Shown here one piece after another: positions 8,861 through 56,900 of a stretch of 64,000 nt of DNA (positions are counted from its first letter, which is position 1; the number at the start of each line of letters is the position of its first letter). The DNA is from Blasia pusilla (Eukaryota), in the NCBI GenBank assembly GCA_050084515.1, contig CM114271.1:44268001-44332000 (forward strand). The letters are read 5' to 3'. Made by a program: the position numbers and the translations under genes. The notes beneath the pieces were generated by a model. It had not been told where the DNA came from. It searched no databases and worked only from the letters and a program-made list of their open reading frames with translations.

Positions 8861-8962
8861 TTTCACTCTTATTATACATGAGAAAGATGCGAGGGGGCGG
8901 GGGGAATTCGATATTTGCAGGAAGGCAAGCGAGTTGTCTCGGTGGGGAGCCCTAGAGACGCT

Positions 8963-11900: not shown

Positions 11901-12004
11901 GTGCAATTGGAAAGGAAATCCCTTGATCGGTCTCCTCAAGATGGGCGTGAACGTCAACCTGTCCTTGAGCAACTGAAATGCTCGCTCTTGCTTATCCTCC
12001 CAGT
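8963..12004 (-). mobile_element. Gypsy-type DNMT retroelement copy 1 (3' part only: RNase H, integrase, decayed PHD, B1-A2-B2 end)
   Basis: RNase H (LHTDWSMLGLGAVL, YNSYESECLAAVWA, TDYQPL), integrase (WSLDFVGPLP, LTDQG). Terminal repeats B2 ~8963-9090, A ~9091-9605 and B1 ~9608-9735 are homologous to 45457-46230. Cut at ~12004 by the Mutator-like element. Confidence 0.9.
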
Positions 12005-12369
12005 GGGTTGCACGGGTACCTCGCCTTGTTATCCCAAGATGAGGGAAGCGTGCAACCCCCCGGTCTTCGATGGGTTGCGTGGGTACCTCGCGATGTTAGC
12101 CCAAGACAGGGAAGGCATGCAACCTGTCCGTCCCGGACAGGTTGCCAGGGTAGCTCGACTTGTTACACGAGGAGGACGTATGCGTGCAACCCATGGGTCT
12201 TGGGCAAGTTTCTGGGCAACTCGCCCTACATCCCCAAGACGCAGGAAGCGTACAACCCATCGGAGACCGTCAAGTTGGCCGTGTTTCCACGTCCAAAGTT
12301 CCATAACGGCCGACATGTCGCCGTTGGTACGACGGTGCAACCCAACGGTCAGCTCAACGGCTCAAAAAG

Positions 12370-21800: not shown

Positions 21801-21836
21801 CCTCCATTTGGGCAACCCCGCATATCCAACCAGGAT
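18836..21836 (-). mobile_element. Gypsy-type DNMT retroelement copy 2, internally deleted
   Basis: Protease (VLLDSGAQPL) joins directly to the pre-integrase linker at ~20707. Integrase (DFAG, TDQG, DGLAERVVQ) and a decayed PHD remain; MTase, RT and RNase H are absent. Confidence 0.9.
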
Positions 21837-34255: not shown

Positions 34256-35230
34256 GACGATGGATGTGTCCCAGATGTACATAGAGTAGGTAGTTCTTCA
34301 TTCTAACTTGTATCTTTGACATGGATGACAAGAAGGCAACTTACGATGGGGCCATATGAGCACCTGGCCTTCTTGCTCTTAACGTCGAGAGATGTATCTC
34401 ATAGTAGGTAGGGATAGATGGCTATCTGGAGTTGGAGGGACCTAACCACTAGCTAGGGGGGCGATTGGAGATATTTTGGTACTTCTTGTCTCGTTGTTTG
34501 GATGCCATGAGTTAGCATGGGATCGTGCGTGTTTGTGTGTGTGTTCGGTGACAACGATGTATGTTGTGTAGCGATGTGAATGCGCACGAAGATTTTCACG
34601 TCTTTTAGGATATATCGGTGAGATCTAGTAGAGCGCCTTCGTGAGAAGTGGTGGACAGGCTCAGTTGGTCGAGGATGACCTGCTAAGGCCCCGGAAGCCT
34701 CAGCAGGTCATCGTTTCGGCTCATTTGGAGCCATATTTAGGAACTTAATATTTTAGATAAGTATCATTTTGAGTATATGATCCACTTTCTATTTTTGGTA
34801 AATGATCCTTGACCTTCTACATCAGGTCAAGAGCCAAAGAGGTGACTTGGGAGCATAGGTTACCATGGAGAGAGCTTGGGAGAGGGGAGGGGTCCCAAGC
34901 TCAAGGAGAGAGAGCTTGAGAGCTCATTCTCTCTTTGTTGAACCTCTTGGCATGAGGCGGCAGAGCTATGGTCTTGCTTGTCTTGTGTGTGTAATCCAAT
35001 CCTCTCATTAGGAGAGTGGGTTTGGGTTTGACATTGAGAGACACATGTGAGAATGCACACATGTGAGAACTATAGTGTTGTGAGAGAGATTTGATCTTTT
35101 TTATTGGAGATATTCTGGTAATTCTTGTCTCGTTCTTTGGATGCCATGAGTTAGCATCGCATCATGCGTGTTTGTGTGTGTGTTCGATGACAGCGATGTA
35201 TGTTGTGTAGCGATGTGTATGCGCACGACA
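34256..35230 (+). mobile_element. Gypsy-type DNMT retroelement copy 3 (end of PHD, 3' UTR and B1-A2-B2 end)
   Basis: RWMCPRCT-stop, purine tract aggggggcg, B1 34464-34591, A ~34594-35102, B2 35103-35230 ending ...cgaCA. Confidence 0.9.
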
Positions 35231-38200: not shown

Positions 38201-39548
38201 GTCAGATTCATGGCAGGCTGCGGCTACTAGGATGGCAGAGATGCCCGCTAGACCCGCGATAGAGGGCGCCATGGCTTCTCCCGGTGTTGTATTGCTGGAT
38301 AACAAGGAAGAAGTGTCCCTGTAAGTGAGTCTATGAGGTAGAGTTTTTAGACCGTAGCGTGTCTCGTTGGATTCAGGAGCGCAACCCTTGAGGTTGGGTT
38401 AAGCGGCATTCAAAGGATTGGGCTTGCCGAGAGCCGATGTGGAGCGTTGTCCATTCCAGATATAGACATCCTTGGGTGGAGCAAATACCACAAAGTAAAT
38501 CACCCGACATGAGGTCGTGGTGAGGATTTTCCTGGGACATCCTACACATGATTCCATGGTGCGAGCCAAGGCGATAGTGACCAATGCAGAGTCCTACGAA
38601 GTCTTGGTTGGTGGAGCAGTTTTGTACCCGATGGGATTTTCCCTCGATTACAAGGAGGAGTCAGCGTCCTACAGGCCACGATGGCAGTCAAGTGATTGGT
38701 GCCTTAGCTCATTACCCATTTGAATCATCAGTGGAGTGGTTGAGCGACGGCCAAGAGAGATGGCGATCTTAGCAGCATTTAGCGGCGCCATCACTTGATC
38801 TAGTGATTTGATTGAGGGACATGTCCATGCAGAGGACACTCCCATTCTTGACATTTCTATAGAGAGGAGTGTCATGATGGCCGCATCATTCCATGGAGGA
38901 GAGGTGCCGCTTTGGGGCTCGACTGAGGGGCTTTGACGGAAAGTTGTTGAGCATGTGCAGACCGCGTGGAGCAAGACATTTGCATCGAAGCATGACGGGT
39001 CAGAGGACCCCGAGGTAGCCGAGAGTGCTATGATGACGCCCTCAGATACTACACTCATTGTGTGGCGCATCCTATAGGAGGATATTCGTGTGTTGGATCT
39101 CTTTGGAAGGATTAGCAGAAGTTTAGTTGTTGTTTTGCAGGCAAGAGTATGCGTGCAGCAGTACCTGTATGTGGAGATTGATGATTTTGCGAGGCGCGCT
39201 TTACTTCACCATGTGGCGCAATTACGCCTCCAATTTCCTGACTTGTTGTCTACGTCCGCCATCCAGGGGTTCCATAGTTCCCAGCCAAGGGAAATTTTAC
39301 TGCTAGGGTTGTAGGACTTAGAGCGGGTACGGACCATAGATTTGGTCATTGTTGGTTGGCCGTGTTAGGACCAGACGAGTGTTGGACGAGATAGCGGATT
39401 AGCTAACTCTTGGTCTAGGTTGTTCTGGGAGATGATGCGGATCTTGCGACACTTACAGGAGCATCAATCTCATTCTCCAGCATACATTCTAGAGAATATG
39501 CCGATTTTGGGCGATTCGAGGTCCCGCGTCGTGACGAGTACACAACAA
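35231..39548 (+). mobile_element. Gypsy-type DNMT retroelement copy 4 (5' UTR, gag, protease, first half of the C5-MTase), heavily decayed
   Basis: Homologous to 54400-50270. Zn-knuckle-like CWACGGSHHQPDC and CDYCQRYGHTRFMC, protease LDSGAQP at ~38367, MTase VLDLFG / GWPC / LEN at ~39090-39500 with many stops. Confidence 0.9.
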
Positions 39549-39549
39549 C

Positions 39550-40077
39550 TCACATAGTCATATCTTCGTGACTAAACCAATTTTGTCCGCTTCTATAGTA
39601 GTCATGTAACTCTACTCTTCTAGTCATAGTACATGACTACATGAGGCCATACCAACATTTCAATAAAATAAAATGACTACATGAGTTGCCAACTATAACT
39701 GAATGGAGTATACTTGGTGCATTTTGATAGGATATTCTAAACTTTTGCGCACCAACCATGACTAAAGGAGTCGTTGGTGGTAACTAGAAAAATATACACA
39801 TATGACTAGATGAGTCGTACTCAAGTCCACATCATCATTCACATGTCACAACAATAGTCCATGTCATCAGTGACACATCACACTAAATAGTCCATGTCAC
39901 TGATGATGTGTCATTATTCCATGTCATCTAAGTGACGTGTCAGTCATGGCCTCATGACTACATCCTCAGGTCATATACCAACCTCCATCTAAGCTGACCA
40001 TCCTAGTTAGCCTAGTTGCCAAACAAATATGACTTGGCTTTTGTGTCTAAAGTAGTCGTCAGTCATTGTTAGTGGTG
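39550..40077. mobile_element. Possible CACTA-like terminal fragment
   Basis: Short subterminal motifs repeated in both orientations (catgactac / gtagtcatg), ending in tagtggtg (reverse complement CACCACTA). No partner end seen. Confidence 0.3.
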
Positions 40078-41229: not shown

Positions 41230-44200
41230 GGTTTCTTGTCTTTACTCAAGAAAGCATGACATAAGCAAGGCCTATAGCAAATACAAACTTGATAACTAGA
41301 AGACAAGGACCTGATATTGTTAAACCCTGACTCTTGTGACTTGTCATGGCGTAGTCGAGTATCAATGGAAATGTTCTCTTGATATATTTATGATGTGATA
41401 CATACGTGAGCGTTGCAAATTTTGATCTACTAATAAGTAAGGTTTTGTTTTTTGATAAGATTGTGACCATAATACCCACCAAGTCTTCATCATCCTAAAT
41501 CAAGTCTATGACTTTTGCCAAGGACCCATCGGCAGCTTGTAACTTCAAATTAATATTTAAAGTGAGCATAGTAGTACAATTCATTGCAACAAACGGAAGT
41601 TGGTGAAATGTACTATCTTCTAGCCAAGAATTGAATTAAGTTGTAAGTGGAGCATATGATTTAATATCTACTTTAACAATTGATGCATCTGCAAACAAAC
41701 GCCTTAAAGCAAGTATGTTGAATATCGCTACGTCTTTGCAATGTGTGCATACTATTGTTGTGGCATGGTGAATGAAATCTATCGATTCATTTTCTGATAC
41801 AAAATTATCACACAAACATTGGTCAAGTTGAAGCTGTGTGGGTATTTTATGTCTAATAGAATTCAAGAATTGAAGGTAATGCGGATCAACTGAATGTCTA
41901 ATTGGAGTTGATAATTGAAAGGTCATAATTTTTTGAAAGAATATAGAGGATGTCACGTGGCAACTTGTACAGTAATCATTGGTTTTATGGTTGCAGACCA
42001 GCGGTAACTGACACATGTCACCAACTAAGATTACTAGTTTGTTATCATTGGTTTTATGGTTGCACACAAGCGGTAACTGACACATGTCATCAACTAAGAT
42101 TACTAGTTTGTTACCAAATAGATTCATATAATCGTTAGTACAAACTTTGTTTAAGCGCATTGCTATTATGTGGAAAACATTTTGGTATCAACATTGAACT
42201 CTCGTCTATAAAAATGACATGTGCAGATTTCAACCTCAAATAACTATTAGAAGTAGGATGGATTGATGGGAGATCACCTCTTATAGGTATGGCAAAAGTT
42301 CAATGAACAGTGGTGGCTTCATTGTGAAGCCTAACAGCTACAATGCCTGTAGTTGCTGTTAGCAATGGGTTCAATCTTGCCTTAGACCATACTTTATGCA
42401 TAAAGGTTATGAAATATGTTTTGCCACAACCAGGTGGACCTTTGAGGAGTACTAGACGTGATGTAAGGTTGGAGAGAGCATTGAAAAGATCAAGTTGCTC
42501 CTTATTAAGAGTAGATAGGTCGTCTTCTAAAGTTGCAATCTTAAATGGAATAGATGAAGAAGGAGTATGAGTTGATGATTGCAAAAGCATTTGACTTATG
42601 TCCATATTAAATTCAGATTGTAGTTTGTCAGTAACCTTGGCAAGGATTTTTGAAAGTTGAACTTGTCCCCATAAATTCTTGATTGCATGGTTTTTAAGTG
42701 TGAAGATACCAGAGATACCTCAGATATGAATGAAATATTGTGGAGCAACGCAGAGTAGAAAAAATTGTTCCACTGATGTAGAGGGTGGAACTGGGTAAAC
42801 TGAAAAAACGATTTGTGCATGTTACGATATTGCCAAGATTTCTAGGGCAAGGAATTTAGTCGTGTTTACATGGTAGGATTTGACTAATTCATACCTAGAT
42901 CAATATTCAATAAATGTAAGGCTTTCAAGTTGTGATGGCCCATTAGAATATAGAACAACATGATGAATGCAAGGAATAGAAGCATTTCTATATAATGAGT
43001 TGCGCCGGTGTGGGGGATTAGAGTCAACATAGTGAACAACTTGTGAACAAAAAATAATAGGTATTTGCATAGAGGTTAATGCAGCTTCTATAGAGGAAAT
43101 AAATATATTTAAAACCACTCCTGAAATCAATTTTAACTTAATTTCATCTAAGCCTCCTAATCCTAGGTATCGGGCAATGTCAGTGTCGATGTCCAAGGAC
43201 CCTCTTGGTTCAGATTTAAGCCCATATTTTAGTAAATAAAAAGACCACTCGATATTTGTGACTCTTTGTATGTTCATATGCGCCCCCATAATATCAAGAG
43301 CAAAGGGTGATAGGAAATAACATTACGTTTCTCTAGAGATGGACGATGATAGTTCCGTCTCATGGTTTTTGGATCAATATATGGTTCAACTTTTTGGTTT
43401 GGAGGCGAGGGAAAACCAAGGCGACAATATAGCTTCTGATTTTTATTTTTTGCGTACAATGCATACTCCTTCTTTGCACTTGTGCAAATTGCTTATTTGA
43501 GATGTATTGAGAAAGAAGATCCTCTGAAGACAGTGTTGACGCATTTTCTAAGTTAGATGTAGTATATGGACAAGTGGATGGAATATAGGCGGCTATCCCT
43601 AACGTAATTTGTTGAATTTTTGAGTCATCAATCCATAATATCATGTGGCAATGTAGGCTGCCTCGACCCTAGAGTTCACACCAAAGTAAGTAATGAAGCA
43701 CTCAACCAAGTATTTTTGGGTCTTATAATGTACAAGAGTTTCTATTTTACAGTCGTTTAATAAGTTCGATCCCCAAGAGAATCATTGTTTGATGAAAAGA
43801 GAGTTCAAAATTACAATTCTGTTGCAATAGTTGTATTTAAATGTGTATTATTTATAATCAATGTCTTATCAATATCTTCGGATCTTTCTTAGTACCAAAG
43901 TTTCTTTTCTCAATTCTCTCTAGTGGAGTTGACAGCACGCTAAGGTAGATTTCCTCTCGATCTCAAGAAACCTCACAGAGACCTCAACATAAAAGCTGGC
44001 TTCTCCTACTTTCGGAACTCAATCCGTCTCGGCAGGCTACTCTCTGTCAAACAGATTTCCTACAACTCTATGTTGATTATTCCATTGATGAGAAAGGTTC
44101 GCCTGATTCACTCCTCACTCTGCAGACCCAATAAGAATACTCAGACATAAGCATCGCACATCAGAATGAAGGAATTATTGCTTTACTACTCTATCAAGAA

Positions 44201-45456
44201 TGAGAAAGCTTTTAAGTGTATATAAGCTTGAGAGGGTACTACTCCCTTGCTTGGACCATTCCTACAGCATAAGGACTTCGTAAGAGAATGATGATGATAG
44301 CTACTTTCATTGCTTCTTAAATACTCTTTGAAGGAGGAGTGATCCAAAGATTCGAAGTGGTTTTGATGAAGCTGGTTGCTCTTCAACTTTTGTAACTACC
44401 TAGATTTATGGTGCTCTTTGCTTTTCCTATGATCCCTATGAATCCGCAGAACAAAACTGTCATAACTACCAATTTAATACAAAGGGTTGCGTCTCTTCCT
44501 ATTCTAACTGTTCTAACTATATGTCGCTTGAAATCACTGTCAGTCTTAGCTTCGCTTCGCTGCTAAGTCTGGACCTCTTTTGCTTCGCTTGAGCACAAAG
44601 CTCTTTCTCCTGATCTGAAGACGAAGCGCTCCATTCTTGGTTCTTGTTCCAGGTGCTTTGTTCTTCGTGCTTCGTACAAGAGCGAAGTACTTCTTTCTTT
44701 TCTTCTTCCTGCTTCGTTATGCTTCGTTATAGAGCAAAGCACTTCATAGACAGAGCTTCGTTGAGCCGTTGAGCTTCGTTGTCGTTCCGAAGCTTCTTGC
44801 TGGGTTTTGAGACTTCGTTATTTTAGTCTCCTCTCCTCTTAGGCAAATCCTTGATTTTCTATCTCTCTACCTTGTCCTTGGAGCTTCGTGATTCACTTTA
44901 ATCTTACTCATTCCTTCCCATAATAATATATAATAATCAAAATCATAATGTATATACAAGTCTTCGTTGAATAAAAATATATATTTCTTCAAAAGTATAA
45001 AATTGTGGGTATTACAGGCCCCCAAATATGAAACTTGATAGAAAAGATTGTAACCTTGTGTGAAAAAGATGAGCACATTGTGCAAGAGTGTCTTGCCATG
45101 TAAATGATGAATTTAATTTTTTCAATAGAAATTCAATATCATCATACTCTAGCCATCGAGTTGTTGGCACTTCTTCAAATGTTAAGGTAAGGAAAAACTG
45201 TGGCATGTCCCATTTGTGGACCATGGCTTTGAGGTCCTTCAAATGTCTACGGTGCCATGAAGGACTACCTCGAATATGAAGTCTAATAGAATATTTTGAC
45301 AAGTGTCTCTAAAGATGTTCTTAAGGCAGATCAGGTTTTTCTTTCCTTAGTTTGTCAAACTCAAGGTTTAGTATGAAGGATCTACTTCAAGAGCATAAGA
45401 TTATAGATTGCCTTAGATCATGCATTAACATGGAATAAGATTTATACAAAGAGAAG
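41230..45456 (-). pseudogene. Helitron Rep-helicase, 3' part (HUH Rep + PIF1-like SF1 helicase), decayed
   Basis: GSPSWH..DLKAMV..PQFFLTLT (Rep motif 1), EL*GRGSLHCHMILW (HUH motif 2, ~43680-43635), YLLKYGLK (motif 3), Walker A GPPGCGKT, IFIDESSM, GDMCQLPLV, YAMTSHKSQGLTI, GLAYVMLS. Confidence 0.9.
43730..45010. other. ~1.3-kb insertion interrupting the Helitron Rep domain (includes an LTR-like, gcttcg-rich segment ~43860-44930)
   Basis: Separates Rep motif 1 (45012-45302) from motif 2 (~43680), which are normally close together. Boundaries are approximate and the family is not identified. Confidence 0.45.
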
Positions 45457-46230
45457 TGTCGGGCGCATACACATCGCTACACAACATACATCGCTGTCAT
45501 CGGACACACACACAAACACGCATGATCCCATGCTAACTCATGGCATCCAAACAACGAGACAAGAAGTACCAAAATGTCTTCAATTAAAGTAAGATCCAAT
45601 CTCTCTCTCCACCATCTCACACCATAGCTCTCAAAGGTGTGCACTCTCTCTCTCATGTCAAACCAAACCCACTCTCCTAATCAGAGGCTTGGGTTACACT
45701 CACAAGGCAAGGTACCATAGCTCCGTCGCCTCATGCCAAGAGGTTCAACAAAGAGAGAATGAACTCTCAAGCTCTCTCTCCTTGAGGTATACCCCTCCCC
45801 TCTCCCAAGCTCTCTCCAAGGTAACCTATTCTCCCAAGTCACCTCCTTGGCTCTTGACCTGATGTAGGAGGTCAAAGGCCACTTACCAAAAATAGAAAAT
45901 CGATCATATATTCAAAATGGTACTTACCTAAAATAGTAAGTTCCTCAATATGGCTCCAAATGAGCCGAAACGAAAGAGAAACCTGCTCTCTCAGGTTTCC
46001 TGGGGTCTCAGTAGGTCATCCACGACCTAGTGAGCATGTTCTCCACTACTCACGAAGGCGCTCTATTAGATCTCACCGATCTATCCTAAAAGACGTGACA
46101 GTTGTCGTGCGCATACACATCGCTTCACAACATACATCGCTGTCACCGAACACACACACAAACACGCATGATCCCATGCTAACTCATGGCATCCAAACAA
46201 CGAGACAAGAAGTACCAAAATATCTCCAAT
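45457..46230 (-). repeat. 3' terminal repeat block B1 (46103-46230), A2 (45585-46100), B2 (45457-45584)
   Basis: B1 and B2 are near-identical 128-bp direct repeats. A2 matches 55208-55721. A 2-bp spacer (46101-46102) separates B1 and A2. Confidence 0.92.
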
Positions 46231-46410
46231 CGCCTCCCTAGCTGGTGGTTAGGTCCCTCTAACTCCATATAGCCATCTATCCCTACCTACCATGACATAC
46301 ATCTCTCGGACGCTAAGAGCAAGAAGGCCGGGTGCTCATGTGGCCCCATCGTTAGTCGCCTCCTTGTCATCAATGTCACAGACACAAGTCAGAATGTAGA
46401 ACTTCCTACT

Positions 46411-47700
46411 CTATGTACATGTGGGACACATCCATCGTCCCTGAGGAACCCTAGTGAGAGCAGGCGTCAAACATGCCATATGCCATCCTCTCGAACACCC
46501 ATCACAGACTAGCATCGTGGCCGCACCACGGGCAGAACCACACAACATACAACGCAAGCCTGCAGGAACTACAGCTAAGCTCGGATCTACTGTACCATCA
46601 ATATTAGGAAGGTGACATGGCGCACAATTACGCACATGGTCCTTCCATACCATACCATCGCGTCCCTCCAGCAAGAGAACACCCGATGGCAAAATGTCAC
46701 GCACTCTCAGGATAGTGCGCCTGCGATCACATCCAACGCCGTCGTCGGTCGTCTAAATGCGATGCAAGTAGACATAATCTCCCTGATGAAACCTCCGGAT
46801 AGTTGGTCGATAACCACCACCCCGAATAGTCGCATACCTCAACGTATCCCGATGTTGTGCAATCGCCAAGTTCTCGAACGCCATGGGCATCATTCTCCAA
46901 AATAACTCAGCCCTCTGAGAACATGCTCGCACCCATACATCTGGGTCATCAAGGTTCAACACCTCACCAGCATCTCGACGAATGGCCGCAGGTAAATCTG
47001 GCTCTCGGCCATAAAGTAGCAAGTACGGTGAAAAAGACCCTAAGGATGCCTACCTGCTGAATTTGTATCCCATCGCCAATTGGAGGTCCCAATCTCCTAG
47101 GTGACCTCTCTGCAAGCCATACTTGCGTAAACCCCTCTTCACCGTCTGCACAACTCTCTCCGCTAATCCATCCGCCTCCGGATGATCTCGCGAAGTCGTG
47201 CGGTGGTCGATCAGCGCCTGATCACACAAGGCTTGGAACTGACCGCGAAACTCGGTACCTTGGTCTGTCAACACCTCAGCCGGTGCACCATAATGACTCA
47301 CCACTCTATCAAGGAAGGCATAAGCTACTCACTCACTCGCTTTGTCAGGCAATGCAACCAACTCGATCCACTTCGAGAAGTGCTCGACCATCACCAACAC
47401 ATAACGACCGTGGACGCTTCGCCGTCAGGGCAAAGGTCTGCAAAATCCAAACTCCATCTATATCCTAAGCCCATGATCGGTAATGGATGCAATCGGAGTC
47501 GGAGCATTGAACGATACTCGGACCCGATCACACACCATGCACTGGCAACAAACTGCTGAACGTCGTCTGCATGCCTCGCCACCAATACTGAATCTGGAGC
47601 AAGCTGTACGTCCGCTTCACCCCAAAGTGACCCAACTCCTCGTGGGCATGTTGCACTAGTCGTGCTCTCTGCAAAGGATGCGGCACTACGCATACTCTGC
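46411..47700 (-). pseudogene. DDE integrase with C-terminal PHD finger
   Basis: HEELGHFG (HHCC region), WSLDF, VLTDQGTEF, HPEADGLAERVVQ, and PHD CMLCGS..MLVCDGCSRGWHMACLTPAL..VPQGRWMCPTC (C4HC3). Confidence 0.93.
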
Positions 47701-48029
47701 CATCCTCCCAAACCCTCAAAACATGTGTCCCCTCCCAACGGAACCGTCTAGCCCGCTGTAGGATAGGATCCCGCTCTCTAGCATCCACGGTGCACGCAAC
47801 GCTCCCAGTACGAAGGTACTCCAAGACAAATCCATCATCATGAATATCTCGGCCACTTGCCGTGTCTTCACTGGCCTCGGGATCCAAGGACTCTCCACTA
47901 GACCTCGCCATCGAAGTCTCCACACTCTGGCACTCCATAGCCAACATGCCTAAATAGGCCGACGCGTGCCATCCTGGCACCGACTCCTCATCACTCTCTC
48001 CATGCCATCGAGCTCCAGTCGCATCTCGC

Positions 48030-49330
48030 TGACTCGGGCATGGGTTATGACTCAACCTATCTGCATCTTGGTTGAGCGTCCCAGGTCTATGTACCACCTG
48101 AAAATCATACTCCTGCAACAACAGGCCCATCTCGCAAGCTTCCTGTAAGCTTGCCGGACTCCATCAACCACTTCGGTGGTTGATGATGTGATGATGGTAA
48201 GGGGTTTCCAAATAAGTAACACCGAAATGCGCGACCCCACACATGACCAAGCACTCACCCTCATACGAGTTGTACTTTGCCTCTGCGGCGTTGTTCGAGT
48301 GGCTAGCGTAAGCCACTCTGAACTCTCTACCCTCATCATCATCTTTGGGTGAGCACCGCCCAAGCCCCAACATGCTCCAATGTGTGCAATCTGGAAAGGA
48401 TGCCCCGATCGGTCTCCTCAAGATGGGTGCGGACGTCAACTTTGTCCTGAGCAATCGAAATGCTCGCTCTTGCTCATCCCCGAGTGCCACTCGTGATCCA
48501 CCTTGGTCGCAAGGTCGGACCATAATCGAATCGAATCCCTTGACATATCGCCGATAGAAGTTGCCAATCCCATGAATGCGTGAACATGGCTCACATCCGT
48601 AGGGCGTGGAATGCGTGAGATAGCCTCTACCTTTGTTTTTGAACACGAAGGCCCCCTGGGTATATCGTATGACCCAAGTACTCAATCTGGTCGTAGAAGA
48701 ACTTGCACTTGCTTGGATGTTGCTTCACCCATGTAATTGCAATCGTCAAAACACCTCCTCTAGATGTTGCTCATGCTCCTCAACCGTGGCGCTAAAGACT
48801 ACGATGTCATCAATATAACACCTAGCAAAATCCGGACCACCAAGATCCTATCCATGACCCTTCGAAACTCAGCCGGGCGTTCTTTAACCCAAATGGTAAG
48901 AACCGCCTTTGGTACAAACAATCCTTCCCGTGAGGATCGATGCCCCAAAATGCCGTCTTCTTCGCTTTTGTCCTCCAATCGATAGGTGATGGTATCCGGC
49001 TCATAAATCAATGAATCAAGACCTTTGCGTGACCAATCGCATCAAAGATCTCCTCGAGGGGTGGGCATGGCATACCTATCGGACTTCGTGCGCCGATTGA
49101 TAGGTCGGTAATCCCCACACATCCGCCTATCCGTCCAGTTGCCATGCACATTCTTCTTGGCGGGCATGATAGTGGCGGATGCATACTCCCCATGCAACAT
49201 CTCCACTAGTCTGCTCCGACCAAGTCCTGGCTCCTACTCGAATCGAGCCCTCTCCATATCACTTTGCACTGTAGGGTCGCGGAAGATCGGCATATCACTC
49301 GAAAACTCAATGCGGATCCCCGATCCCTTT
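48030..49330 (-). pseudogene. Reverse transcriptase + RNase H (many frameshifts)
   Basis: EEIFDAIGHAKV, KTAFWG, FLPFGLKNA, yIDD-like site at ~48805-48820, RVAYASHSNN..KYNSYEGEC, LLLQEYDFQVVHRPG..N.DAD.LS. Confidence 0.9.
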
Positions 49331-49774
49331 AGCGCACCCAAATCCTCCTTGCTAAACGCAGCGCTCTTATAACTCCCGAGGCGATGTATTGGCGCCGCTC
49401 TCCTCCTGTCAACTTAGGGCCCATATCGGCTCCCAAGTCTTCATCGTGACTACGGTAGGACTCTCGGCGTGGGTATCGGTGGTTGCTATGGTGCAACCCC
49501 GTCTCGAACAACAACACTCGGCCGCTCTCCTACAGCCAACTGCAAACTCTGATCTCCTCCATGTGCAGTGCCCGAAACCACGCTCGATGATGTGGCTATC
49601 ATCTCCTTGCGTACCTGCAAAACATCCCAAGAAGTCCAAGGGTGTCTCTCCCGATCTCCCCTGGTGCGTAGATCTCCTCGGGTCTTGCCCCCAACCACTG
49701 CCTCCACCGTCTCGATAGGCATGGGGCTCAACAACGCAACCGTTGTGATCTGTCGCGATCTCATACGACGCTGC

Positions 49775-50720
49775 TCAGCTGAGGATCCATGTCAAGCAGT
49801 TAAGGTCCATCGCCTTACCCAAGACATGGCGTCGTGATGCCTCTGACACTGATGGTACTACCGTCACTCCTGTGAGACATCCCATCGCTCGCTCTCTCTC
49901 GTTGGCGTTGGGCTCCACCAACCGCTGAACCTGGTCATCCCAAACCAAGCCAGGACCGGCCTCCTTGTATGCATAGGAAGCGGGAAAACTCACAAACGTG
50001 GGCAAGGCTACCCGCGGCCTGCCTACCCTGTTGACCATAGTCAACGGTGGTCGATCATCGTGCCTCACTGCCTGGGATTGACGACCTGGATCCAGAATGG
50101 AATCCACTAACAAATGGGAGGGGCGCTCCACTCTCGGATACGCCCTCCATAACACCGCATGGGGCACCAAGTTGGTCCACCATAGACGCGGGCGATGGGC
50201 TCTAGAACCTACACCCGCCGCATCCAAGAACAATGTTGGGCCGATCCAGGCACGTACCTGATGAGCACTCATCACCACCCGTGACCTGGAGTCTCCTAAG
50301 ATAGGCACATTCTCCAGAATGTAGGCTGGAGAACGAGACTGGTGCTCCTGCAACTGCCGTAAGACCCTCAACATCTCCCAAAACAACCTAGATCGAGTGT
50401 CATCCAACCCGCTGCCTCGTCCAGCACTCGATTGGCCTTGACATGGCCAACCGGAAATGACCAAATCAATGGTCCCTACCCGCTCTAAGTCCTGCGCCTC
50501 CAACAACAAAATATCCCTCGGTAGGGAACTCGGTATCCAGATCTGCGGACGCACAATAAGTCGGGAAAACGAGGCGTAATTGCGCCACATGTTGTAGTGA
50601 GACGCGCCGCAACATCATCACTCTCCACATACAAATCTTTGTTGTACTCGCACTCTGCTGCAAAACAACAGCTAACCCGGTGCTAATCCCTCCAAAGAGA
50701 TCTAACACTCGAATACCCTC
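49775..50720 (-). pseudogene. C5 cytosine DNA methyltransferase domain, DNMT3-like, inside the pol region
   Basis: Motif I IRVLDLFGGISTG, IV DLVISGWPCQ, VI YILENV, VIII AHRPRLWWTNL, IX ERERAMG, X LGKAMD. Frameshifted between motifs I and IV. Confidence 0.93.
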
Positions 50721-51058
50721 CTCCGGGGTACACCACATAATGGGTGTGGTATCCAAGGGAGTCATCGTAGCACTCCCTGCTACCTCGGGTTCCTCAGACC
50801 CGTCACGCTTTGGTGCAAATGCCTCGCTCCATGCGATCTGCACGTGCTCATCTGCCAATCGTTGAAGCTCCTCAGTCGAGCCCCACAACGGCACCTCTCC
50901 TCCACGGAATGATGCAGCTACCATAACACTCCTCTCCATAGAAATTTCAGGAACGAGAGTATCCTCTGCATGGACATGTCCCTCAATCAAATCACTAGGC
51001 CAAGTGATGGCACTGCTAAATACTGCTAAGGTCGCCATCTCTCCTGGCCGTTGCTCGA

Positions 51059-51565
51059 TCACTGCACATGTGAATCGAACGGTAATGAGCTAAGGCGCCC
51101 ATCACTTGACCGCCATCCTGGTTTGTAGGACGCTGACTCCTCCCAGTAATCCAGGGAAAACCCCATCGGGTATAACACTGCTCCACCAACCAAGACGTCG
51201 TAGGACTCTGCATGAGTCACTATCGCCTTGGCGCGCACCACAGACTCATCTTTAGGATGTCCTTGGTGAATCCTCACCACGACCTCCTGTCGGGTGATAT
51301 ACTGTGTGGTACTTGCTCCACCCAAGGATGTCTGTATCCGGAATGGACAACGCTCCACATCGGCTCTCGTCAAGCCCAATCCTCTGAATGACGCTTTCCC
51401 CAACATCAAGGGTTGCGCTCTTGAATCCAACAAGACGCGCTGCGGACTAAAAGCTCTACCTCCAGGACTCACCAACTGGAAGACCTCTCCTTGGTTACCC
51501 AGCAACACAACACTAGGAGAAGCCATGGCACGCTCTATCGCGGGTCTAGCGGGCATCTCCGCCAT
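51059..51565 (-). pseudogene. Retropepsin-like aspartic protease
   Basis: VLLDS(R/G)AQPLMLG (DSG in copies 2 and 4) and the downstream YDVLVGG motif. Confidence 0.85.
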
Positions 51566-52049
51566 CCTAGCAACGCGACGCCATGAATCGGCGTGGACGG
51601 CCGGAGCATCCGCTCCAAGGGCAGGTCCATCACCTCCTCTGCAATCACCTCTGAACGTGATGCAGGAACTCTAACTGTGCGCTCACATAGTGAAGCGGCC
51701 AACCGAAAAGCCTCGGCGGGCGTACCCCCCAACGTCATAACATCGGAAGCAGAAAATAAACGAGTGCGGTACACAACGGTGGCCGCCCCCAACAACGTGC
51801 TTGACACATGCCCCTCCTGAGCATCAACAATAGGAGTCGTCGCACTCGCTTCTCCCATCGCCCTCCGTGCCTGCACACCAACAACATCACCTCCAGGAAC
51901 TTTGATGAGGACACATCGATGGGGTCCTCATCGCTTCGGACAACGTGAAAGATTGAGGAAGCCTAGTCATCTTCCGGATTCCCTCATTTGTGGATCCAAC
52001 TCGTGGGCGGCTCCACGCAGCGTCTCAAGCCTATGGCAACCTCCATCTA

Positions 52050-53700
52050 GGCAACCCCGCACATCCATCTAGGATCCTCCAGATCTCTGGCTGCTCCATA
52101 TGATGTCGATGCTACGGATCCGGCATCGGGTAACCTCAATGCCATAGTGGCAATCTGCTCTTGTAGGCTGCCAGATTCGGCGACCATCCCGACCTCACGT
52201 CCGTCTCTCCTCGGCGCGTCTAGGTGGTGGTACTCTACCTCCTCCACGGACAGCTCCACCACCCTATCGGGCAACTCCAACTCCTCGTCCCCCAACAGGA
52301 CCACCTGGTGCACGATCTCTAGGCCCACCCAGACCGGCTACTCACTCTGGTGCCCTCTCTGGCCCTCGGTCCCGACGTAACTCATGATGTAAACTGAAAC
52401 ACCTGGCGCGTGTATGACCATACCTCTGACAATAGTCACACTGATAACCTCCTGGTGCAGCACCATCTCCTCCTCCATGCTGAGGCACACGTCCATGACC
52501 CTGACGAGTGTAATCGCGCTGATGATGGGCTCCACCACATGACCAACAAGTAATAGTAGGCGGCTGCTGCTGAGCCGCCTACTATTACTTGAAGGCACAT
52601 GTCTCTGTGGCACAGCCTCCCGGTATCCTCCCTGAGCTCGTGGTGCCACAGTCGACCTATCTCGGAGTCCACGTTGCTGCACAGGTGGTGCAAACAATCG
52701 TGACTGCTCTCACCCTGAACCCATGGTGGCTACGCTCTCCTCCGCCATGTTACGCTCAATGTTCTCGGCAGTCCTAAAAACATCTCTCAACGTAGGGGAG
52801 GTGTTCATAAGAAGCACCCCCTCCCGCACCCGTGTCCGCAGGGTCCGGTCCAACATCGCGTACCATGACTGGATAGCCTGAGCCTCTGTCACCCCCTGAG
52901 TGACGTTGATCAAACGGCGCAAGCGAGTGTAAGCCTCACGCAAACTCTCACCCGGGCGCCTTTGGAAGTTGTGGATGCTCCGCAACTTCTCCGTCCGAAC
53001 CCGTGGTAGCTCGCCCTCAACTTAGCAAAGAACTCAACCACAGGGTTGAACCTGGGACGAACCCGACTAGACGGTGCAACTACTCCCGTGCAAGTGACCC
53101 CTCCTAAAACATCACTAGTGGAAGAGGCAGTAGCCTCTCATGACTCCTCCTCCTTATCTGGGAATGGCTTCGTCCATGACACATAATGTGGGTCATAGTA
53201 GAGCCTCCACGCCTCAATCTCACATGCATATCTCTGAGAGAACTCATGGTAATCGTCCATGGGCGCCCCCTCTAAATGCTGGAACATACCATTCCATGCT
53301 GTAAATGGGTTGAACTCTCTAGAGTTCTTGGCCCGCTGGGAGTCGCACCAACTCCTAAACTCTGCTATAAAATCGTGCAACTCAATCGTGCCTACTGCAC
53401 TGAAAACCTACGCGGTCCTCTACCCCGGTCGTCCATCTCGTACGCCAAACTGGTAGGACCACTCACAATATGTGGCCATGTGCTCACAAACTCCTCTACA
53501 CCCTCCCCCTTGTCTGACGATGACACAGAAAGAAGTCGAGGTGGTCCCTCACGTGAAGACCCTCGGAACCTCGCGCCACTCCGCGTTCCGCGTAAAACCT
53601 CTAGAGCTACTGTCGGGTTCACCACCTCGCCTCTCAAAGTCCCAAACGGACTCCGTGATGACCCTTGTGCCCCTCTCACCCGATCTCTTTGAACCTCGTG
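52050..53700 (-). pseudogene. Gag-like region
   Basis: FQRRPGESLREAYTRLRRL (retrotransposon gag QxxxES motif) and two Cys/His knuckle-like motifs matching copy 4. Confidence 0.8.
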
Positions 53701-55207
53701 AGGAATCCCTCAATCACTCATCCCAAACATGCGGCATTCGATCTACACTCTCTCTCCCCGAGACGTGTAACGTGCGGCAACACGCGGCGTGGTGCGGCAA
53801 ATCGACCAGGCTACCATCTCATCGACAACCTACCCTCAACTCCAGACATCCCACACAAGTCTATGTCCCCTAAACCACATACATAAATGATGCTCTCAGC
53901 ATCCCCACACCCAATTTCCCCAAATAAATCCCAGAATCCCTCACACATGTAGGGTAAAGGACCAGAATGGGTAACCTGAACACATGTCGATGTTGCTCCT
54001 CAACAACTGCAAATCTCGACCCCAACTCGATTGTGGAGACAACTCCTCCAATCATCAAGTCATACTCCTCCCGTACTGACGCTGCTCAAAACTCCTCGAT
54101 ATCTGATGCGGTCCTCAAGGAACAGTGCGGCGTTGCGGCGACTAAGGCGGCTTTAACGGCACGACCCTCGATGGTGGGATGCGGCACTCCGCGGCATACC
54201 CTCCTCAATCAACAATAAACCCACACTCTGCTCCACAATGACGGTGCGGCTCTGCGATCGAGACGGTGTGGTACGGCCACGAGCGGCACGACGCGACAAT
54301 CGGCGGCGCGTTGCGGCTACGGGCGTCACGGCACGATACTCGATCGTCGTCGAGCGGCTACCAATCACAACATAGCAACATGAAATCAAAACTCAAACGC
54401 CATAATCGAGGTCATCTGCCATCACTGGTTGATGAAGAAACTGCGATGATGGTGGCGGCCAAAACAAAGTACGTGGTGGCGACGCAAGTCAAGGAATCAA
54501 CGAACGTCGTGGAAGACCCTCCACTCCGTAATGGCGGCAATGGCACCCAAAGGGTGGATAATGGACGGTGGACCGTTGACAGTGACGGTTGACCGCTGAT
54601 GGTGAAGGTTGACCGTTGACGGTGACTATGATGGCGACAGCCGCCGCCGGTGTGGCGGCTGATTTAGGGTTTGCACAATTTAACCCTAAAAATCGCCTAG
54701 TAATGGAAGTTTTACAAGATTGACCATAACTTTTTGCTCGCAACTCCAAATTATGCATTGTTTGTTGCATAGCGTGCACAGCTTCACGATCTAGGCCAGC
54801 ATCAAAAAATATTTAGAATCGAACATTTCAGTAAAAATTGACGGGGACTGTTGTAAAGCCCAATGTCGCTTTCTCCTACACAAAATTTGGCAACGCTTCC
54901 GCGCTGATTTCTCCCAACGAAAATGTAAAATCTGTAAAAATAAAAATCAGCAAGCGAGAGCACCAGCATGGGGCAACCCGCCCCCATACTCAATCCCTAT
55001 CAAAAATTGGGCAACGCTTCCACGCGCCACTCTTCCACACGAAAAATTGGCAAATGCAAAGAATAATGAAAGCAGCCCTTGCTCCGGTGAGCACTCCCAT
55101 GAGCCGCTGAACGGGGAACACGGATCCCCAACCTGCAAAAACAGCGAGTGACCAGCAAGCTCCCCCGTGAAGCACTCTCATTCTCTCATTCTCTCATTAT
55201 CTCTTTA

Positions 55208-55721
55208 TAAAGTAAGATCCAGTCTCTCTCTCCATCATCTCACACCATAGCTCTCAAAGGTGTGCACTCTCTCTCATGTCAAACCAAACCCATTCTCTTA
55301 ATGAGAGGCTTGGGTTACACTCACAAGGCAAGGTACCATAGCTCCGCCGTCTCATGCCAAGAGGTTCAACAAAGAGAGAATGAGCTCTCAAGCTCTCTCT
55401 CCTTGAGGTATACCCCTCCCCTCTCCCAAGCTCTCTCCATGGTAACCTATTCTCCCAAGTCACCTCCTTGGCTCTTGACCTGATGTAGGAGGTCAAAGGC
55501 CACTTACCAAAAATAGAAAATCGATCATATACTCAAAATGGTACTTACCTAAAATAGCAAGTTTCTCAATATGGCTCCAAATGAGCCGAAACGAAGGGGA
55601 AACCTGCTCTCTCAGGTTTCCTGGGGTCTCAGTAGGTCATCCACGACCTAGTGAGCATGTTCTCCACTACTCACGAAGGCGCTCTATTAGATCTCACCGA
55701 TCTATCCTAAAAGACGTGACA
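55208..55721 (-). repeat. 5' terminal repeat A1 (514 bp)
   Basis: Direct repeat of 45585-46100; about 14 substitutions and one 2-bp indel by manual comparison. Not followed by a B repeat. Confidence 0.95.
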
Positions 55722-56900
55722 GAAGACACTTTAAACTTTCTCGGAACGGTTACGATTGTATTATGAGAATGAGGATTCACCCCTGTAATAACCGCGGAGA
55801 TAGGGAAACAAGAAGGGAAATAAACCTGTTACTTTAGTAAGCTTCGGGTCCAAAGAGATACTTGTATTATCTGTGAGGAGACTCTCACGTGTTGCTAAAT
55901 TCTCACGCAAATAAAGACTACCACTATAAAAAAAATGTATGCTGAAGTTTTTTTTTTCATAAGCAAAGAATAGGCCACATCTTGTTAAATGTTGAGTTCT
56001 GGATGGTAAGGATCATGGTGCATGCTATGGATCACCTGAACTTTATCTTGAGATTGTTTCAATATCCCTTCTACTGCCTTAGATGGCAAAATTACCAGTC
56101 GAGATATAGGATTCAGAAGTTCTAATAATGTCTTATTATTTCTATACAATTTTTTAATTATGAGGATAATTGAGAGTATGTTTTTGATTGGTTATGCAAA
56201 CTGCAATGTGGAGTGAGGATCAAAATTATTGAGGTTAAACCGTGCAAGAGGAGAATCAAGAAGTGAAGATACATTAAAAAGATTCCTTATGGAGGCCATT
56301 GTATTTGGCTTCAATACCTATACACGAGTCAAAATTGACAGAAGTTGAAGCTCAAGGGGATTAACACGGAGTATGTGCTTGATGTATGCAGGTGTCATGT
56401 AAACGTAAGGTCAATTCTTGCCTTCCTTGAGATACATTGTTCACAAACATGAAATTTTCCTGGACGTGGTATCATATAATCTGTCAAAAATCTTCATTGT
56501 GTCCATTATGATGGATATAATGAAGATTGGGTGACTGAAATTTTAGTTCGAAGATTTTCGTAAAGAATTTGTCGGAAATACCCACAATAGTGCATCATTT
56601 TGAAAGTCCTAGAACATTCTTATTTCCATTTGATTAGGTGTTCAATGGAAGCTGACCAAGCATAGTAATGTGATCTACATGCAAGTTTTTTTTTGTCAAT
56701 GAAAGCTTTGCTCGGATATGGAGTCTGTGATATTTTAGCCTCTGCTTATTGAAGGCAGAGGATCTCCAAAATATGTTGGAACAAATCCTTAAGTAAGTCT
56801 GTTGGTAAGCAGCACATGTTGATATGTATAGCTTTTTTTGTGAGTGATTATCCTCAGGGTTTGCCATCTAGCCTAAGTACAATATGTTGTATAAATCTGA
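55722..56900 (-). pseudogene. Helitron Rep-helicase, 5' part (continuation beyond the retroelement)
   Basis: GLFPFLFPYLRGYY at ~55830-55790 resembles the Helitron N-terminal PxLFPxG motif and lies upstream of Rep motif 1 once the insertion is removed. The distal boundary is uncertain. Confidence 0.6.

Follow-up and report, generated by a model that had tools for sequence, protein, structure and literature searches.

Results

The 64,000-nt stretch of Blasia pusilla DNA analyzed here (the window) harbors one retroelement between positions 45457 and 55721 of the minus strand. In a direct reading, TGTCACG opens the element at 55721 and ...CCCGACA closes it at 45457, and it is flanked by a 4-bp target-site duplication, CTTC, identical on its 5' (55722-55725) and 3' (45453-45456) sides; the limits given in a preliminary description of this locus proved exact. 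TG...CA termini and 4-bp duplications were evident in all five elements with both ends readable, namely the window element (CTTC), L036 (TCTC), L076 (AAGG), L078 (CATA) and L030 (TACA).

Its terminal repeats are not two plain LTRs; they are split direct repeats in the arrangement A-coding-B-A-B. The 5' terminal A1 (514 nt, 55208-55721, beginning with TGTCACG) is 96.9% identical to A2 (516 nt, 45585-46100), and B1 (128 nt, 46103-46230, ending in ...CGACA) is 95% identical to B2 (128 nt, 45457-45584), which forms the 3' terminus and ends in ...GACA, all on the minus strand. B1 and A2 are separated by a two-base spacer, AC (46101-46102), a length conserved in four of four elements read, and the resulting CGACA-AC-TGTCA resembles two element ends joined together. 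Besides the A-internal-B-A-B layout of the main element, B-A-B is found at two other 3' ends in the window, and the arrangement recurs in six metagenome loci, three of them complete elements. The element has no tRNA-type primer-binding site, and no classical polypurine tract lies beside A2. Instead, a purine tract (AGGGAGG, 46233-46239, minus strand) precedes B1 by two bases and is a candidate plus-strand primer; a related family has AGGGGGG at the equivalent position. Directly after A1 lies a primer-binding-like site (55192-55207, minus strand), 13 of whose 16 bases are complementary to A positions 337-352 and which may serve in priming. In the related family, 11 of 20 5' ends reached at least 13/16 at this site (16/16 in three loci, 15/16 in two and 13-14/16 in six), the target always being A positions 162-169. 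We found no published description of such a self-priming-like site after A1, nor of TG...CA ends at A-start and B-end.

Inside the repeats, the minus strand encodes, in this order, gag, protease, a C5 cytosine methyltransferase (PF00145), RT, RNase H, a DDE integrase and a C4HC3 PHD finger (PF00628), and tblastn revealed colinearity of the window with the Marchantia polyproteins P0124 and P0126 in the order gag-PR-DNMT-RT-RH-IN. The capsid-like part of gag is split over two frames (52710-53407; P0124 residues 17-243) and accompanied by a decayed zinc-knuckle region (52378-52578) that aligns with the CCHC-bearing stretch of P0124 (residues 294-354). The aspartic protease region (51080-51670) was delimited by tblastn (P0124 residues 570-754) and translation; neither gag nor protease gave a Pfam match in the scan of window ORFs. 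The RT (48562-49380) is badly decayed, with five stops, and was recognized by tblastn (P0126 residues 716-953, E=9.7e-43), with no Pfam match even when read through with X at stops. Scanning of the neighboring ORFs returned RT_RNaseH_2, Integrase_H2C2 and rve, which locate RNase H at 48164-48724 (PF17919, E=6.8e-10) and the DDE integrase at 46753-48163 (PF17921, E=1.6e-10; PF00665; rve, E=2e-12 read through), with the H2C2 zinc domain at ~47561-47671 and the end of the rve core near 47179.

As transposons are nested in the window and A-coding-B-A-B is typical of PAT/Ngaro elements, an assembly chimera, a nested insertion into an ordinary gypsy element or a DIRS/Ngaro-type tyrosine-recombinase element might be envisaged, but this already disfavored explanation is scarcely credible: the integrase is of the DDE type with an H2C2 domain, the target duplications are 4 bp long, and the same domain order occurs in single gene models or ORFs of several species (P0126, P0150 and P0259) and in 80 independent contigs. 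In all proteins scanned, namely window ORFs, read-through frames and relatives, tyrosine recombinase domains were absent. With high confidence, the element is a dead member of a Ty3/gypsy-type family whose pol carries two chromatin modules, a DNMT3-like enzyme and a PHD finger.

The methyltransferase occupies 49778-51047 of the minus strand (P0124 residues 768-1195 by tblastn), with a PF00145 match (E=6.6e-12) in ORF 49775-50614(-) and a frameshift between motifs I and IV, such that the two DNMT ORFs overlap at 50466-50614. Its translation contains LDLFGGISTG, GWPCQG, ENV, AHRPRLWWTNL and VLGKAMDLN, which we take to be motifs I, IV, VI, VIII and X, respectively. A profile built from 21 family members matched DNMT3A best in the PDB (72 bits, E=3.8e-19), ahead of DNMT3B (66 bits), NtDRM (39), DRM2 (33), M.HhaI (28) and DNMT2 (25), with no match to DNMT1 or CMT at E<=0.01. 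Similarly, when an AF2 model was submitted to Foldseek, DNMT3A/B/C accounted for all 41 matches listed among ranks 1-50 (best match, E=3e-14, TM 0.70 on target), at ~20% identity to DNMT3A. Judged by profile and fold ranking rather than by a tree, the predicted enzyme is DNMT3-like. The preliminary description had anticipated that a gypsy-type element would carry a DNMT3-like methyltransferase between its protease and RT domains, as borne out here by Pfam, the tblastn order, the profile and Foldseek.

The PHD finger (46414-46551, minus strand) is the final domain of the polyprotein, with a stop at 46411-46413. PF00628 matched ORF 46411-46752(-) with E=2e-11 and 47 of 47 profile positions covered; with stops read as X, rve (E=2e-12) and PHD (E=1.7e-10) share one frame, ~200 residues apart, which upholds the earlier claim that the integrase ends in a C4HC3 finger. 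Searches with both Pfam models, as initially proposed, were thus positive. The ligand pattern in translation is C-x2-C-x11-C-x2-C-x4-H-x2-C-x14-C-x2-C. The nearest solved structures are the PHDs of CHD4, DPF2/3, KDM5A/B (PHD1), BHC80 and AIRE, presumably readers of H3K4me0; the best 60 PDB matches are all of the CHD4, DPF, KDM5 PHD1, BHC80, AIRE or UHRF1 sort, and ING, BPTF and TAF3 are absent from these 60. By sequence, then, the finger resembles H3K4me0 readers. No chromodomain was found by Pfam in the window ORFs, read-through frames or scanned polyproteins of relatives.

This copy cannot work, because it has accumulated at least seven changes of frame between gag and RNase H (tblastn) and one to seven in-frame stops per aligned block from the DNMT onward, and its protease active-site motif reads DSRA instead of the DSGA of Marchantia. 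Nonetheless, all 30 bins of the element were covered in three host RNA runs, with first mates on the plus strand mostly 10 to 50 times commoner than on the minus strand, which indicates sense RNA, given usual stranded libraries. Because only 12, 13 and 17 of the 3714, 3859 and 3957 matched reads were at least 99% alike to the window element (~85% were 90-95% alike), this RNA derives from other related copies. No intact family copy of the host was seen.

Further copies lie in the window. A second one (35474-39551, plus strand, 78% DNA identity) comprises 5' UTR, gag, protease and the first DNMT part and is cut off at 39551; P0124 residues 501-1036 align in one frame to its protease and DNMT (37944-39551(+)), in agreement with the methyltransferase earlier noted at 39090-39545. 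The others are a 3' end with internal-B-A-B (34256-35233, plus strand), a 3' part with integrase, PHD and B-A-B (8962-12005, minus strand, 89% identity) and a copy with an internal deletion and truncated B (18836-21836, minus strand). The DNMT was found in every related copy that reaches the region, including the second window copy, the 80 metagenome loci and gene models of Marchantia, Calypogeia, Sphagnum and Riccia. Homologue searches yielded 181 near-length and 44 longer sequences, 19 of the latter named from Marchantia, Calypogeia or Sphagnum. An open gag-pol frame across the methyltransferase, earlier named as a check, exists in relatives, among them P0259 (2188 aa), which runs uninterrupted from CCHC to integrase (gag-DNMT-RT-RH-IN). 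In a second architecture, found in the green alga Hariotina, the DNMT directly precedes integrase and PHD. The finger was detected by tblastn in 24 of the 80 metagenome loci; among 69 polyproteins with the second architecture, 58 carry it. The DNMT is therefore a family trait, as first surmised from two copies, and both modules are present across the family. We found no published description of this second domain order or of a conserved PHD in Gypsy-DNMT3 elements.

We further considered that both modules might be functionless passengers after a chance capture. Most copies seen are indeed pseudogenes: all 10 translated metagenome copies have 1-13 in-frame stops, 74 of 80 loci lack any plus-strand ORF of at least 400 aa, and such an ORF overlaps the DNMT match in only four of the 80; PHD dN/dS is 0.53-0.69 at low divergence, with 1 inside its intervals. 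However, between two window copies of different subfamilies the DNMT catalytic core yielded a dN/dS of 0.13 (90 codons, bootstrap 0.05-0.26); over 144 codons the value was 0.24, compared with 0.13-0.29 for gag. The ratio near 1 that would have spoken against the preliminary description was not seen; the catalytic core is under purifying selection. Moreover, an alignment of 21 sequences shows little or no variation in the catalytic PC(Q) and ENV, both modules are kept across lineages with only 40-45% DNMT identity and differing domain order, and diverged homologues amount to 464 cluster representatives at E<=1e-30. The passenger explanation, already disfavored, is accordingly very improbable.

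Discussion

DNMT-bearing retrotransposons of dinoflagellates and a charophyte, correctly pointed to in the preliminary description, are the closest precedents (de Mendoza 2018, PMC5890265). According to the available text of that work, KnitGypsy-Dnmt3 of Klebsormidium nitens combines Gypsy domains with the repeat structure of SymbioDIRS, given as A-coding region-B-A-B. It shares with the window element these domains and repeats, a DNMT3-type domain that lies unrearranged within the Pol ORF and a streptophyte host, and its DNMT is likewise under purifying selection (Ka/Ks below 0.2, versus 0.13 to 0.24 in the window family). PHD fingers are not mentioned in the text of PMC5890265. Judged by these shared features, the window element appears to belong with the Gypsy-DNMT3 elements of K. 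nitens, and because A-coding-B-A-B also matches, we regard it as a member of this known charophyte-type kind and not as a separate invention. Common descent rests on shared architecture, since no K. nitens protein was among the named matches of our protein homologue searches; the nearest relatives are from bryophytes (Marchantia, Calypogeia, Sphagnum and Riccia), not from a charophyte. SymbioDIRS-Dnmt3 of Symbiodinium, as far as described in the available text, also bears a DNMT3-type domain within Pol, has A-coding-B-A-B repeats and occurs in two coexisting domain orders, but it is a DIRS element with tyrosine recombinase, whereas in the window element the integrase is of the DDE type, the ends are TG...CA and the target site is duplicated.

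The two modules have separate counterparts. DNMT3A is a de novo C5 methyltransferase whose ADD zinc finger reads the unmethylated H3K4 tail, and the window element similarly pairs a de novo type C5 methyltransferase with a putative unmethylated-H3K4-reader zinc finger. In contrast to DNMT3A, it lacks PWWP and ADD domains, and its modules stand far apart in a viral-type polyprotein, probably to be separated by protease cleavage. Chromoviruses are Ty3/gypsy elements whose integrase ends in a chromodomain. At that C-terminus, both they and the window element bear a histone-tail reader that presumably chooses insertion chromatin, a chromodomain in the former and a PHD of the H3K4me0-reader sort in the latter. 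A term search of the available text of the plant LTR element survey by Neumann et al. 2019 retrieved neither PHD nor methyltransferase.

We propose that transcription would start inside A1 and that a gag-pol polyprotein would be made and then cut by the protease. Given the pairing of the 16 bases that follow A1 with an inner part of A, reverse transcription may be self-primed in the manner of Tf1, an element with self-priming reverse transcription. Like Tf1/Tcn1-type elements, the window element is devoid of a tRNA-type primer site and the bases that follow its 5' repeat can pair with a site within that repeat; its extra B repeats fall outside the Tf1 scheme. Self-priming of Tcn1 is noted in the available text of PMC6317226. 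The integrase would insert DNA with A-start (TG...) and B-end (...CA) as ends, resulting in a 4-bp duplication. It is conceivable, if somewhat doubtful, that the PHD tethers the integration complex to nucleosomes without H3K4 methylation, away from active promoters, a targeting role comparable to that of the chromodomain in chromoviruses. Just as tentatively, the DNMT may methylate the element's own new DNA, either cDNA or a fresh insertion. Both the self-methylating enzyme and the integration-steering finger are thus putative roles. We assign a probability of about 0.75 to this explanation as a whole, that is, the Gypsy-DNMT3 identity together with the proposed working.

An unlikely alternative retains the identity but gives the enzyme other targets than the element's own DNA (RNA, host chromatin around insertions or the genome at large) or a role in self-restraint, in which silencing of its copies would make the family tolerable to the host, with the PHD regulating the enzyme instead of integration. 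It could accommodate the sole published assay of a Gypsy-DNMT3 domain, in which that of K. nitens produced no DNA methylation in yeast, an outcome its authors consider inconclusive (PMC5890265, available text). The second architecture also suits it, as DNMT adjoins integrase and PHD and a DNMT-IN-PHD product would be possible. Further, the ADD domain regulates DNMT3A, and the mark read by the nearest solved PHDs, H3K4me0, activates DNMT3A via ADD. Nevertheless, RT, RNase H and integrase separate DNMT from PHD in the window architecture, the finger occupies the place of the targeting chromodomain of chromoviruses, and the enzyme has a predicted DNMT3 fold with conserved motifs IV, VI and VIII of DNA enzymes. 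SymbioDIRS-Dnmt3 domains, in addition, methylate CG in DNA in yeast (PMC5890265, available text).

The kind of element described here was already known from one alga, and the window places Gypsy-DNMT3 in a land-plant lineage; the family is common in bryophytes and hence unexotic for early land plants. Its wide spread calls into question the capture of the DNMT in the K. nitens lineage, where the available text of PMC5890265 had placed it.

Structure and decay of the element

On the (-) strand, the element begins with TGTCACG at position 55721 and ends in ...CCCGACA at 45457, with CTTC on both sides, so that the boundaries 45457-55721 drawn in the preliminary description are exact. Pfam searches of the (-) strand ORFs matched DNA_methylase (PF00145, E=6.6e-12) and a PHD finger (PF00628, E=2e-11, 47/47 profile positions), the two domains for which that description had proposed an HMM search, as well as Integrase_H2C2, rve and RT_RNaseH_2. 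Two gene models of Marchantia polymorpha, P0124 (gag-CCHC-PR-DNMT) and P0126 (PR-DNMT-RT-RH-IN), used as tblastn queries, traced a colinear gag-PR-DNMT-RT-RH-IN order through the window. The gypsy type claimed for the element is thus borne out by the RNase H, H2C2 and rve matches and by an order colinear with PR-DNMT-RT-RH-IN polyproteins. As had been described for the integrase terminus, the rve core and the PHD finger lie in one frame (read with X at stops), the PHD finger being the last domain before the stop, with C4HC3 zinc ligands read in translation. No chromodomain was matched by Pfam in the window ORFs, the element read-through or the family polyproteins, nor was a tyrosine recombinase (PF00589) in any protein scanned, that is, window ORFs and family polyproteins.

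The gag-to-IN tblastn path requires at least seven frame changes, aligned blocks from the DNMT onward carry 1 to 7 stops each, the protease carries DSRA in place of a DSGA motif, and both the RT and the protease region, translated with X at stops, were without a Pfam match. This main copy is therefore a pseudogene in which the methyltransferase frame is broken. In the relatives P0126, P0150 and P0259, by comparison, the DNMT is in frame with pol; P0259 is an intact protein of 2188 residues that spans the gag zinc knuckle, DNMT, RT, RNase H and integrase in this order.

The window as a whole is a transposon nest of family stretches and other transposon ORFs. Further stretches of the same family map to 8962-12005, 18836-21836, and 34256-35233 together with 35474-39551, the latter being a (+) strand copy hereafter called copy 4. 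The surroundings of the element are transposon-rich and partly AT-rich; they include a hAT-like ORF at 3877-4542 (+) (DUF4371, E=6e-7) and a weak PIF1-helicase fragment at 41636-42187 (-) (E=3e-4), possibly Helitron-like. The CpG observed/expected ratio is 0.83 in the element versus 0.78 in the whole window, from which we draw no conclusion.

Affinity of the methyltransferase

The cytosine methyltransferase had been called DNMT3-like on the wording of its motifs, and DNMT3A/B do lead both the profile and the fold rankings, which are rankings and not a phylogeny. A single-sequence search of the PDB returned DNMT3A as the best match (E=1.3e-6), spanning motifs IV to VIII. With a profile of 21 family members and a cut-off of E<=0.01, DNMT3A scored 72 bits (E=3.8e-19) and DNMT3B/3C 66 bits, followed by tobacco DRM (39 bits), DRM2 (33 bits), M.HhaI (28 bits) and DNMT2 (25 bits), while no DNMT1 or chromomethylase appeared at that cut-off. 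Motifs I, IV-VIII and IX-X of DNMT3A line up with the profile in the same order. In the family alignment, the motifs follow the standard order from I to X and not the rearranged order of DRM, with little or no variation in the catalytic Pro-Cys-Gln, in Glu-Asn-Val or in the AHRxRxWWTNL block.

An AlphaFold model of the family protein P0003 was poor overall (mean pLDDT 58, pTM 0.65) with a usable core, where ten-residue blocks reached 65-89 across most of residues 81-230. Foldseek with this model gave DNMT3A, 3B or 3C in 41/41 rows printed among ranks 1-50, the best match having E=3e-14 and a TM score of 0.70 on the target. The ESM Atlas returned generic PF00145 clusters only, some of them viral, with scores of 0.90-0.91. 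By ranking, then, the family methyltransferase is DNMT3-like, nearer to DNMT3 than to the other classes of C5 methyltransferase.

Split repeats, element ends and candidate primer sites

The ends of the element consist of split direct repeats. Read along the (-) strand, a repeat A1 (55721-55208, 514 nt) is followed by the coding region, a repeat B1 (46230-46103, 128 nt), a 2-nt spacer (46102-46101), a second A (A2, 46100-45585, 516 nt) and a second B (B2, 45584-45457, 128 nt). Identity is 96.9% between the two A repeats and 95% between the two B repeats. The layout is thus A-coding-B-A-B and not a pair of plain LTRs. The same internal-B-A-B end was found at two other window copies and at six metagenome loci, three of which hold complete elements. 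All five elements in which both ends could be read carry TG...CA termini at the A-start and B-end and are flanked by 4-bp target duplications (CTTC, TCTC, AAGG, CATA and TACA); what was inserted is therefore the stretch between A-start and B-end, and a DDE integrase put it in.

The B1|A2 joint (...GACA-NN-TGTCA...) resembles two joined element ends. Nine loci (L015, L021, L030, L031, L034, L042, L056, L058 and L064) hold short forms that end at B (...GACA) and pass into unrelated sequence without A2-B2, and the one at L030 has both ends and the 4-bp duplication TACA. Such A-coding-B forms may be recombinants between B1 and B2, or they could be primary products. At the A2-B2 joint, the copy at L036:10838-10856 has ~19 extra bases missing from other copies, and the first base of B2 varies between G and A among copies; this joint may be made anew in each cycle, or it may simply be mutating.

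Neither a tRNA-type primer binding site (TGG...) after A1 or at the B1|A2 joint nor a purine tract right before A2 was found in the element. The 16 bases that adjoin A1 on its inner side can base-pair with a segment at a fixed place inside A. In the Sphagnum-like family this segment falls at A positions 162-169 of ~340, and across 20 5' ends the complementarity reached 16/16 in three loci, 15/16 in two and 13-14/16 in six; in the window element it amounts to 13/16 at A positions 337-352, a low-complexity stretch. Tf1 and other self-priming elements show such complementarity between the sequence after the 5' repeat and an inner part of the repeat. A purine tract does stand just before B1 (AGGGAGG in the element, AGGGGGG in relatives). 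Were the self-complementary site and this tract to act as the pair of primer sites, the product of reverse transcription would carry B-A at each end. A circular or joined-end intermediate opened at a single inner B|A joint could then yield the A...B-A-B seen here; this derivation is speculation.

The PHD finger

The PHD finger is present in window copies 1 and 2, and tblastn located it in 24/80 metagenome loci; in each case it lies ~4.3 kb downstream of the DNMT start and closes the frame. Among the 60 PDB matches shown, its nearest solved relatives were CHD4 PHD1/2, DPF2/DPF3 PHD2, MLL3, PHF12, ATXR5 and KAT6A, together with KDM5A/B PHD1, BHC80, AIRE and UHRF1, and none was an ING, BPTF or TAF3-type finger. 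The fingers of these relatives recognise H3 tails in the unmodified state (H3K4me0 or H3R2). Because these nearest solved fingers read the unmodified tail, we propose that the family PHD would likewise read H3K4-unmethylated chromatin, a prediction by likeness. Between window copies, dN/dS of the PHD finger was 0.53-0.69, an underpowered estimate at low divergence whose intervals include 1.

Locus L034 additionally contains, at 14856-17465, a second and more distant gypsy fragment with RNase H, integrase and a PHD finger, the last being ~37% identical to that of the window element. After it, a 157-nt repeat, ~340 nt and the same 157-nt repeat make up a B-A-B-like end. The combination of PHD finger and split repeats may mark a wider clade.

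Family spread and selection

The methyltransferase had been noted in copy 4 as well and taken for a family trait. Residues 501-1036 of P0124 indeed align to 37944-39551 in a single frame by tblastn, and the presence of the DNMT in this second window copy and in homologues of several bryophytes confirms the trait. Searches with the window DNMT ORF yielded 181 near-length homologues and 44 among longer proteins. Named sources in the latter were Marchantia polymorpha (15), Calypogeia fissa (2) and Sphagnum (2), and the near-length homologues also included Marchantia paleacea and Riccia sorocarpa; M. polymorpha thus contributes 17 named gene models, 2 in the near-length list and 15 in the longer one. 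No protein named as Klebsormidium nitens occurred among the homologues from three protein searches. An exhaustive profile search gave 464 cluster representatives at E<=1e-30, and a metagenome scan gave 80 loci. All ten translated metagenome copies contain stops (1-13 each), as is expected of old transposon copies. One family protein, P0031, is filed under a bacterial MAG (Candidatus Obscuribacterales) on a 2410-bp contig, which is probably a mis-binned plant contig. A run index gave DNA runs under one host label and some air metagenome runs, and no RNA run; four of the air runs (X6, X10, X11 and X14) contained 10-22% of the element's sampled words, from which no habitat can be inferred.

The main copy and copy 4 share 78% DNA identity. 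Between them, dN/dS was 0.13 (bootstrap 0.05-0.26) over 90 codons of the DNMT catalytic core, 0.24 over 144 DNMT codons anchored on P0124, and 0.52 for the DNMT N-terminal part plus linker; gag gave 0.13-0.29 and protease 0.51, and the integrase core gave 0.20 between the main copy and copy 1. The DNMT domain is under purifying selection. The preliminary description had held that a dN/dS near 1 between subfamilies would speak against it; the ratios between window copies, at 0.13 in the DNMT core and 0.24 over the 144 codons, are far lower, and it therefore stands in this respect. The other two conditions named there, absence of the MTase from most copies and a reading frame out of step with pol, do not count against it either.

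Two domain orders

Pfam analysis of full polyproteins uncovered two arrangements. The order PR-DNMT-RT-RH-IN is found in the window, Marchantia, P0150 and P0259, and the order RT-RH-DNMT-IN-PHD in the homologues P0160, P0156, P0254 and P0263; in P0161, the DNMT is N-terminal. The DNMT part of P0160 as query retrieved 69 long polyproteins, of which 58 carry a PHD match in precomputed annotation, and all source-named polyproteins of this type belong to the chlorophyte Hariotina reticulata (EukProt). We built a DNMT tree of 65 rows by quick search with SH-aLRT support only, omitting 2 rows with <150 profile positions. The two window copies are a sister pair (SH-aLRT 92) within a 29-row clade (SH-aLRT 99) that includes all 24 named bryophyte rows, and they fall outside the Calypogeia, Sphagnum and Marchantia/Riccia groups, while the family of the metagenome loci groups with Sphagnum. 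Fifteen second-order rows are all on the same side of a weak branch (SH-aLRT 28), and the tree would be compatible with the DNMT having changed place once within pol.

Transcription

Three raw RNA runs labeled as from the host were aligned to the element at 90% likeness. All 30 bins of the element were covered, and by first mate the + strand was mostly 10 to 50 times commoner than the - strand, which, given usual stranded libraries, indicates the element's sense strand. About 85% of the reads were 90-95% alike to the element, and only 12-17 per run, of about 3700-3950, reached >=99%; the transcripts therefore come from related copies. For the same reason, a pile-up of RNA ends at 45798 was dropped as a poly(A) site, since the reads come from other copies. 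Reads joining 55410 to 46284 numbered 4, 6 and 10 in the three runs, with none in the DNA contig run; they bring internal sequence ~50 nt upstream of B1 to A position ~311. An intron was rejected, as no GT-AG fits within a 4-base leeway, and the joint may stem from a variant copy or from rearrangement of a transcript.

Discussion

Collectively, the preliminary observation and identification hold, and the element is most fittingly classed as a new member, probably a bryophyte one, of the known Gypsy-DNMT3 kind, of which it is a dead copy. Like the KnitGypsy-Dnmt3 elements of K. nitens, as presented in the accessible text of PMC5890265, it combines gypsy domains, a DNMT3 within Pol and A-coding-B-A-B repeats, and its family likewise has a DNMT under purifying selection. 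That text describes 'A-coding region-B-A-B' repeats for the SymbioDIRS-Dnmt3 elements of Symbiodinium. The element shares split direct repeats (A1-B1-A2-B2) with DIRS, PAT and Ngaro elements, but differs from them in its rve plus H2C2 integrase, its 4-bp duplications and the lack of any tyrosine recombinase found. Unlike chromoviruses, it carries a PHD finger and not a chromodomain at the integrase C-terminus.

In the literature text accessible to us, the Gypsy-DNMT3 kind was found only in PMC5890265 and in a 2026 preprint (10.64898/2026.05.21.726589), whose available portion names 'streptophytes (Gypsy-DNMT3)' in passing. The same body of text, figures and supplements aside, mentioned neither bryophyte copies nor the PHD finger nor the second domain order, and a term search of the available part of a plant LTR survey (PMC6317226) returned zero mentions of PHD or methyltransferase. 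Five host methyltransferases are listed for Marchantia in the consulted section of PMC5784723; we found no paper naming any of five Marchantia gene identifiers queried.

A more far-reaching reading, to which we give a probability of roughly 0.45, is that Gypsy-DNMT3 would be an old green-plant clade and not private to Klebsormidium: integrase-type gypsy elements with split direct repeats that pair a DNMT3 writer with a PHD reader of the H3K4me0 type, ranging from chlorophytes (Hariotina, RT-RH-DNMT-IN-PHD) to bryophytes (PR-DNMT-RT-RH-IN-PHD) with one DNMT move within pol, and still transcribed in a land plant. We suggest, tentatively, that the DNMT methylates the element's own new DNA; that the PHD finger guides the choice of H3K4-unmethylated chromatin is an equally tentative proposal. 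If the old-clade reading is true, the A-start/B-end termini and the B|A joint would point to replication by a path that differs from the one taken by ordinary LTR elements, possibly with integration from circular or joined-end DNA.

Why a parasite would methylate DNA is the puzzle posed by transposons bearing the enzyme normally used to silence them. As far as the available text in print goes, the sole plant-lineage example has been an alga whose enzyme was assayed once, without result: the K. nitens domain produced no methylation in yeast, which its authors termed inconclusive, and the DNMT domains of Symbiodinium DIRS elements methylated CG (PMC5890265). Occurrence of the same kind in bryophytes, with M. 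polymorpha gene models and sense transcripts in the host, would open the question to experiment in a tractable land plant.

Chromoviruses use H3K9 methylation for integration; the conserved PHD finger raises the prospect that integration may here be steered by another histone mark. Finally, the spread across green algae and bryophytes bears on whether DNMT3 genes have passed between retroelements and their hosts.
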